Positions 2,622 to 3,002 of a DNA stretch of 4,595 bases are shown here, one piece after another. Made by a program: the position numbers and the translations under genes. Numbering within the stretch: position 1 is the first letter of the stretch; each line of letters starts with the position of its first letter. Under the pieces are notes generated by a model. The model did not search any database, was not told the origin of the DNA, and saw only the letters and a program-made list of their open reading frames with translations. This DNA is from a virus (taxonomy: Duplodnaviria > Heunggongvirae > Uroviricota > Caudoviricetes), in the IMG/VR virus record IMGVR_UViG_2703718811_000012, positions 1 to 4,595 of that record, one strand, 5' to 3'.

Positions 2622-2864
2622 ATGTTCGCACTTATTCAGAGTGGGCAAATATACACGGATAGCGCTGGCTATCCGGTAAAAATTACTCGCAGTACTGTTC
2701 ACTCGGTATTCTTCCTGAGGATGGACGGACGCTCCGGGCGGGTACGCATCACTGAATTCAACAACCTGTTCGAACATATTGACCACCAGGAGTACCGCAA
2801 AATTCTCGCGGACACTGAGCAGGAAAAGCACCTGAAAAAATTACGCGCAATGCAACGGAGGTGA
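2622..2864 (+). CDS. Hypothetical phage protein, 81 aa
   Basis: ATG at 2622 has a G-rich stretch (GGGGA, 2610-2614) 7 nt upstream. The alternative TTG start at 2589 would overlap the micro-ORF and is considered less likely. Ends at TGA 2862-2864; no family recognised. Confidence 0.6.
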   Translation: MFALIQSGQIYTDSAGYPVKITRSTVHSVFFLRMDGRSGRVRITEFNNLFEHIDHQEYRKILADTEQEKHLKKLRAMQRR

Positions 2865-2867
2865 TAC

Positions 2868-3002
2868 ATGCATACGGCTTTTGAGTTCTGGGTTCGCAAC
2901 ACATTCGACAATCGCTACGACCTGACCCGTGATGTTGACGGCTTCTACTGCCGTGAAGTTGTGAAACGAATGTTTGACGTGTGGTGCCACTGCCGTGGAT
3001 GA
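2868..3002 (+). CDS. Hypothetical small Cys/His-containing protein, 44 aa (MHTAFEFWVRNTFDNRYDLTRDVDGFYCREVVKRMFDVWCHCRG)
   Basis: Absent from the ORF track (below cut-off). ATG at 2868 follows a strong SD, GGAGG (2857-2861), by 6 nt. Contains Cys28, Cys40, His41 and Cys42, a possible metal-binding cluster. In the same reading frame as the upstream 81-aa ORF, separated from it only by TGA-TAC. Confidence 0.45.
   Translation: MHTAFEFWVRNTFDNRYDLTRDVDGFYCREVVKRMFDVWCHCRG

Follow-up and report, generated by a model that had tools for sequence, protein, structure and literature searches.

The locus analysed here, positions 2622–3002 of a 4,595-nucleotide (nt) stretch of viral DNA (IMG/VR record IMGVR_UViG_2703718811_000012, positions 1–4,595; hereafter the window), holds a gene of the DUF4222 family followed in the same reading frame by a gene for a 44-amino-acid (aa) protein of the phrog_3871 family. 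Its layout resembles that of known coupled cistrons of phage and bacterial operons, with a 3-nt gap between stop and start codons and a Shine-Dalgarno (SD) sequence placed within the 3′ end of the upstream open reading frame (ORF). The likeness extends to the neighbouring operon junctions, where ATGA overlaps occur, and to other genomes, in which the small gene is joined to its upstream neighbour by ATGA or TAATG. The only peculiarity relative to such cistrons is the coincidence of the two frames, and one junction in three would be expected to show this. Programmed UGA recoding, as in selenocysteine insertion or Q-beta A1-type read-through, likewise features an in-frame UGA beyond which an ORF continues. 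In contrast to those systems, the identity of the stop codon is not conserved at this locus (TAA is in the majority), a selenocysteine insertion sequence (SECIS) or stimulatory structure is missing, and the downstream ORF, which elsewhere lies in other frames, is equipped with an SD and an ATG of its own.

RgdR (ECs1581), the only characterised DUF4222 member, is a prophage-encoded protein that activates LEE1 and type III secretion and represses motility in enterohaemorrhagic E. coli (EHEC) O157:H7 (Flockhart et al. 2012, PMC3378721; PMC10877973). It binds DNA weakly and non-specifically (PMC3378721, PMC10877973), and its RGD tripeptide is reported to be important for activity (PMC3378721). 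The phrog_3871 family comprises 44–48-aa proteins of enterobacterial lambdoid prophages without an assigned function; the lineage in the window differs in ending at G44, without the usual C-terminal LxVV tail. Phage lambda carries ea8.5 and orf55 (lambdap35) at the equivalent position, between an Ead/Ea22-like gene and xis on the pL transcript. Homologues of Ea8.5 have a homeodomain/zinc-finger fold. No sequence relationship between the lambda pair and the window genes was detected, and homology to Ea8.5 or orf55 was rejected at an hhalign probability below 1%, with no related chains in PDB sequence searches.

Our preferred reading, to which we give a probability of about 90%, is that 2622–3002 holds two independent, tightly packed, translationally coupled genes of the pL-side accessory operon, just 5′ of xis-int. 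The upstream ORF runs from ATG 2622–2624 to TGA 2862–2864, and a single TAC (2865–2867) separates this stop from ATG 2868–2870 of the downstream ORF, which ends at TGA 3000–3002. Both starts are in one frame, 2622 and 2868 each being divisible by 3. The original prediction, of two same-frame ORFs split by TGA and then TAC, is thus borne out by the sequence and the ORF list; its coordinates for the upstream ORF stand, whereas the length of 81 aa given there becomes 80 aa, or 81 codons counting the stop. Its placement of the TGA within the downstream SD is likewise correct. The SD core GGAGG occupies 2857–2861, 6 nt from the ATG, and the full 9-mer GGAGGTGAT is complementary throughout to the 3′ end of 16S rRNA. 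The base after the TGA is T (U in the transcript), and UGAU, as Poole and colleagues reportedly described in 1995, is the UGA context at which E. coli terminates most efficiently. As in coupled pairs, the upstream stop lies a few nucleotides from the start of the next gene, whose SD falls inside the upstream ORF, and all other contexts of the small gene are alike in this respect, with a purine-rich SD at equal distance in each.

The coupling mechanism itself can be proposed from this layout. Ribosomes would end gene 1 at TGA 2862, inside a strong SD and 6 nt before ATG 2868, and gene 2 would be translated either through re-initiation by the terminating ribosome or through fresh initiation on an unstructured SD. 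With the TGA inside a strong SD so near ATG 2868, re-initiation or fresh initiation would amount to classical translational coupling. The RNA around the junction (2815–2905) has a minimum free energy weaker than that of shuffled sequences (z = +1.5), with no stable local or downstream structure, and since the SD is unstructured, ribosomes may also initiate there independently. A hairpin that sequesters the SD, considered as a basis for obligatory coupling, is unsupported, the junction RNA being less stable than shuffled sequences. On this reading the shared frame is incidental, and TGA is the stop that fits the strengthened SD (GGAGG-TGA), where relatives have GGAAG-TAA or GGAAG-TAG. By the RefSeq gene calls, 3 of 10 consecutive junctions in the window are in frame (DUF4222 to the small gene, the small gene to xisR, and xisR to int). 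This is the chance expectation, and the in-frame juxtaposition is statistically unremarkable. The remaining junctions are gaps of 4–16 nt or 4-nt ATGA/GTGA overlaps, which are typical for a phage operon.

Comparison of homologous loci carries this reading. We gathered 91 loci by way of the small protein and analysed their junctions without an assumed spacing. All 80 DUF4222-linked junctions consist of a stop, 3 nt and ATG, with the combinations TGA-TAC (46), TAA-AGA or TAA-AAA (23) and TAG-CGA (11). A second scan, of IMG/VR, used a codon-agnostic pattern in which stop codon and spacer were set to NNNNNN, and it recovers a stop at the separating codon in 119 of 119 loci (TAA 77, TGA 31, TAG 11) and a sense codon in none. 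TGA is always paired with GGAGG, whereas TAA and TAG are paired with GGAAG or GGAAA; TGA in this lineage therefore goes with a strengthened SD. The comparison with homologous prophages that had been proposed as a check thus finds the ORFs separate and the TGA never replaced by a sense codon. Variable spacing and frame between separately initiated genes, the pattern that the original prediction had itself named as refuting, do appear when homologues from outside the DUF4222-linked loci are taken in. In Pantoea, Citrobacter, Serratia, Scandinavium, Superficieibacter and several viral or metagenomic contigs, the small gene lies 3′ of unrelated genes, with at least six different partners (among them proteins of 105, 74, 202 and 266 aa, Cys-rich proteins of 55 and 131 aa, and NinH). 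There the junctions are ATGA, TAATG or TGATG overlaps, or overlaps of 5 to 17 nt, in the +1 or +2 frame. Conversely, DUF4222 occurs without the small gene in E. coli O157:H7 Sakai (NC_002695), where the gene downstream of RgdR (ECs1581) encodes a primase and overlaps the RgdR stop. The conserved stop and the separate initiation of the small gene behind unrelated genes support the two coupled genes that had been among the options first put forward.

The sole chimeras among the homologues found are rare internal-deletion products. In the 93-aa protein P0112, present on three contigs (in L102 at 2001–2282), an in-frame deletion of 111 nt between two GTTTGA repeats takes out the last 31 codons of DUF4222 together with its stop, the spacer and the opening codons of the small gene, joining DUF4222 residues 1–49 to the small protein from residue 6. 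The deletion is in frame because DUF4222 and the small gene share a reading frame. An analogous chimera, P0117, joins the 74-aa ‘MKIDFNDYGAV’ upstream partner to the small protein.

Two points weigh against the reading as two independent genes. The 3-nt spacer, and hence the shared frame, is invariant within the DUF4222-linked lineage, so that conservation of the frame is formally inseparable from shared ancestry. In addition, a trace 127-aa read-through product may be made in some hosts, given the native UGA read-through seen in K-12 (PMC5373646).

The downstream peptide, MHTAFEFWVRNTFDNRYDLTRDVDGFYCREVVKRMFDVWCHCRG, matches phrog_3871 over its full length (E = 9.9e-31, profile positions 1–44 of 48) and retains the whole conserved core, namely F5, E6, R16, Y17, L19, D22, G25, Y27, E30 and R34. 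It has 50 close homologues of 24–69 aa, mostly 44 or 48 aa, in E. coli, Shigella, Salmonella, E. albertii, Citrobacter and Enterobacter, and is 95% identical to P0002, a cluster found on at least 1000 contigs. An exhaustive hidden Markov model (HMM) search of 1.84 billion representative proteins returned only 31 matches, all small save for a few long, repetitive and spurious-looking proteins; the family is therefore narrow and phage-borne. AlphaFold2, run with a 28-sequence alignment, predicts a two-helix hairpin (predicted local distance difference test score, pLDDT, 90.3) in which helices 3–13 and 30–43 are linked by an invariant RYDL...G.Y loop. Foldseek found nothing for this model in the PDB and only uncharacterised phage proteins in BFVD, the best match being a family member; a PDB sequence search with the small-protein profile gave nothing meaningful.

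The peptide does have C28, C40, H41 and C42, as first noted, and these might form a zinc knuckle, as proposed there, or another zinc-binding site. The density of such residues, three Cys and one His within the last 17 positions, and the conservation of C28 and C42 at 90% or more in close E. coli and Salmonella homologues would fit this proposal. Several close homologues, however, have R or Y in place of C40 and Y, S or D in place of H41, and across the family all four residues are substituted (C28 by A, V or G; C40 by R, Y, S or V; H41 by Y, S, D, E, A, K, I or L; C42 by L, R, A or F). The homologue fused to an excisionase, described below, keeps none of the three Cys. CX2C or CX2H spacing is absent, as is a match to a Pfam zinc finger. 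In the AlphaFold2 model (pLDDT 90), C28 precedes and C40 and C42 end one continuous helix (30–43), which would place them at its opposite ends, about 18 Å apart and therefore too far for one intramolecular site. A zinc-binding function is thus highly improbable and the zinc-knuckle reading is rejected; from the alignment and the model a conserved intramolecular metal site is very unlikely.

Low-level or programmed UGA read-through, yielding a functional 127-aa DUF4222-Tyr-small-protein fusion in the TGA-bearing lineage, would fit the shared frame, the single sense codon (TAC) between the ORFs and the conserved 3-nt spacer. UGA is the leakiest stop, and in-frame chimeras of both proteins are evidently tolerated, as P0112 illustrates. 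Native UGA read-through has been shown at a few E. coli K-12 loci (PMC5373646). Against this reading, nudL is the sole such locus compared across variants of release factor 2 (RF2), and its product is undetectable with the more efficient B-type (non-K-12) RF2 (PMC5373646). Most relatives have TAA at the stop (77 of 119, with TAG in another 11 and a sense codon in none), and therefore nothing selects for leakiness. The T that follows the stop also argues against read-through, as do the small gene's functioning behind unrelated genes in other frames, the lack of stable downstream structure and the lack of a SECIS or any other Rfam element (no match in the window at E ≤ 1). Read-through, raised at the outset in a low-level form, is highly improbable as a selected feature and is rejected as such here.

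That the 44-aa ORF might be spurious, the region being non-coding spacer or regulatory DNA upstream of xis, could be argued from its very short length, the lack of a Pfam family and its absence from the annotation of older records such as VT1-Sakai AP000400. The ratio of nonsynonymous to synonymous substitution rates (dN/dS) makes this scarcely credible. In comparisons with 16 homologous loci (Nei-Gojobori) it is 0.07–0.2, the distant comparisons having synonymous sites that are saturated or nearly so, and by this measure the gene is under strong purifying selection. Length and start are conserved across genera and contexts, the PHROG match (E = 1e-30) and the confident AlphaFold2 fold point the same way, and no promoter-like site is found in the region, nor any internal promoter in 2400–3400. 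The last alternative, in which a nonsense mutation cut one ancestral gene of about 127 aa in two and left a pseudogene pair, has the shared frame and one intervening stop in its favour and is already refuted by the comparative sequence data: an unsplit homologue is found neither among 5.8 billion clustered proteins nor among 1.84 billion representatives, end-to-end or read-through-type fusions number 0 among 63 DUF4222 homologues (46–109 aa, mostly 80) and 0 among 50 + 31 small-protein homologues, each half is found elsewhere without the other and with different partners, purifying selection acts on the downstream half, which starts at a conserved Met1 behind an SD of its own, and the stop persists while switching between TGA, TAA and TAG.

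Scoring 51.7 bits where the gathering cut-off is 27 (residues 4–54, profile positions 2–53 of 53), the upstream product is a bona fide member of PF13973. It is predicted to fold as a small Tudor/SH3-like beta-barrel with a long, basic helix at the C-terminus; a PDB sequence search with the protein gave nothing meaningful. Like RgdR, which scores 82 bits against the same profile, it is small, basic and prophage-encoded. It differs in length (80 aa versus 99 aa for RgdR) and in context, RgdR being encoded in a P4-like cryptic prophage, 5′ of a primase gene and without a small-gene partner. BLASTP returns no alignment between the two proteins, and the family link to RgdR comes from the Pfam HMM only. 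Where ECs1581 has its RGD, the aligned residues of the window protein are S7-G8-Q9, with no RGD tripeptide, and those of relatives are RGQ, QGQ or KGQ. By analogy, the window protein may act as a small regulator like RgdR. In the predicted models, the DUF4222/RgdR fold appears to resemble the RNA-polymerase-binding Tudor domains of UvrD, PcrA and CarD.

Several observations relate the small gene to the excision module. In about 86 of 98 loci, which are not independent samples, a gene in the xis position lies immediately downstream, at a distance of 7–18 nt. These genes encode two DUF1233 excisionase subtypes, proteins with weak HTH_17/AlpA-like matches, or a 69–71-aa ORF without a Pfam match. 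In a Logan contig (DRR526068; locus L093, 3962–4336), a complete homologue of the small protein (MQKTPMQISFEVWMSQHHGDRYNLDIDCEGYYAVEVTKRLYEMWV...) forms the N-terminal part of an in-frame fusion with a DUF1233 excisionase, directly 5′ of the integrase gene; a 27-aa hydrophobic ORF precedes the fusion, and no DUF4222 gene lies upstream. This fusion is a hint that phrog_3871 proteins and Xis are functionally linked. Distant members of the small-gene family lie in nin regions or ahead of LexA-like genes, and the link to xis is therefore not universal. Gene 2 would act through a protein partner that its product binds, and the neighbouring excision module is the most plausible source of that partner. 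The more specific idea that the 44–48-aa protein is an accessory factor of prophage excision, for example a partner or modulator of the excisionase (the recombination directionality factor), is tentative and, on present evidence, rather unlikely.

Part of the chromosome of E. coli OkiPb01678 (NZ_AP042495.1) matches the window at 100% identity, and many Shiga toxin (Stx)-converting and other lambdoid phages match it at 85–93%. The window forms the early-left arm of a lambdoid E. coli prophage that sits next to yecE/yecN, with the gene order RecT, gp157, a 104-aa protein, DUF5405, DUF2737, Ead/Ea22-like, DUF4222, the 44-aa gene, xisR (DUF1233) and tyrosine integrase. RefSeq annotates the two ORFs of NZ_AP042495.1 as separate coding sequences, a DUF4222 domain-containing protein (WP_044809727.1) and a hypothetical protein (WP_044809728.1). 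The features of the junction and its surroundings are collected in Table 1.

Table 1. Features at and around the junction of the DUF4222 gene and the 44-aa gene (window coordinates).
Feature	Position	Strand	Basis and remarks
Unannotated 27-aa hydrophobic ORF	2534..2617	+	Sequence; ATG overlaps the Ea22-like stop as ATGA; ends 4 nt before the DUF4222 start
DUF4222 gene (PF13973; phrog_285), 80-aa protein, distant RgdR relative	2622..2864	+	
Shine-Dalgarno GGAGGTGAT of the downstream gene	2857..2865	+	Sequence; in the last codons of the DUF4222 ORF, includes its TGA stop
TGA stop of the DUF4222 gene	2862..2864	+	Genuine terminator; TAA or TAG at this site in homologues
44-aa conserved phage protein gene (phrog_3871), two-helix hairpin (predicted)	2868..3002	+	WP_044809728.1; PHROG match, dN/dS, AlphaFold2
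xisR-type excisionase gene (DUF1233)	3021..3275	+	Pfam E-value 2e-29, annotation; 18 nt downstream of the 44-aa gene

Further features of the neighbourhood are recorded here. The DUF4222 gene, the 44-aa gene, xisR and int (2622–4595) all share one frame, with gaps of 3, 18 and 33 nt. The Ead/Ea22-like gene (2073–2537, + strand) is an intact ORF of 154–161 aa that matches PF13935 over profile positions 1–139; RefSeq calls only a partial pseudogene there (window about 2121–2405, ‘missing C-terminus’). The short hydrophobic ORF that follows it occurs elsewhere in four amino-acid variants of the same length (MSWP...(C/F)(R/F)WG), including the contig with the excisionase fusion, which has no DUF4222 gene; from this pattern it is probably a real small membrane protein that annotation missed. 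BLAST matches to other phages and genomes repeatedly begin or end at window positions of about 2601, 2955 and 3016 (query positions 101/102, 456 and 517). Such repeated end points indicate mosaic recombination joints just 5′ of the DUF4222 gene, within the small gene in its conserved 3′ portion, and in the gap that separates this gene from xis.

For annotation the stakes are low, RefSeq already treating both ORFs separately and the architecture being textbook operon packing. The useful outcome is a negative one, in that the locus needs no recoding, pseudogene or metal-site annotation, and it offers a clean example of how a shared frame with a single stop can mislead. Both genes belong to existing, functionally obscure families. 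As a by-product, the analysis brings to light a conserved, uncharacterised mini-protein that travels with excisionase genes, and for the DUF4222 family the Tudor-like barrel suggests a testable mechanism for RgdR-type prophage regulators.
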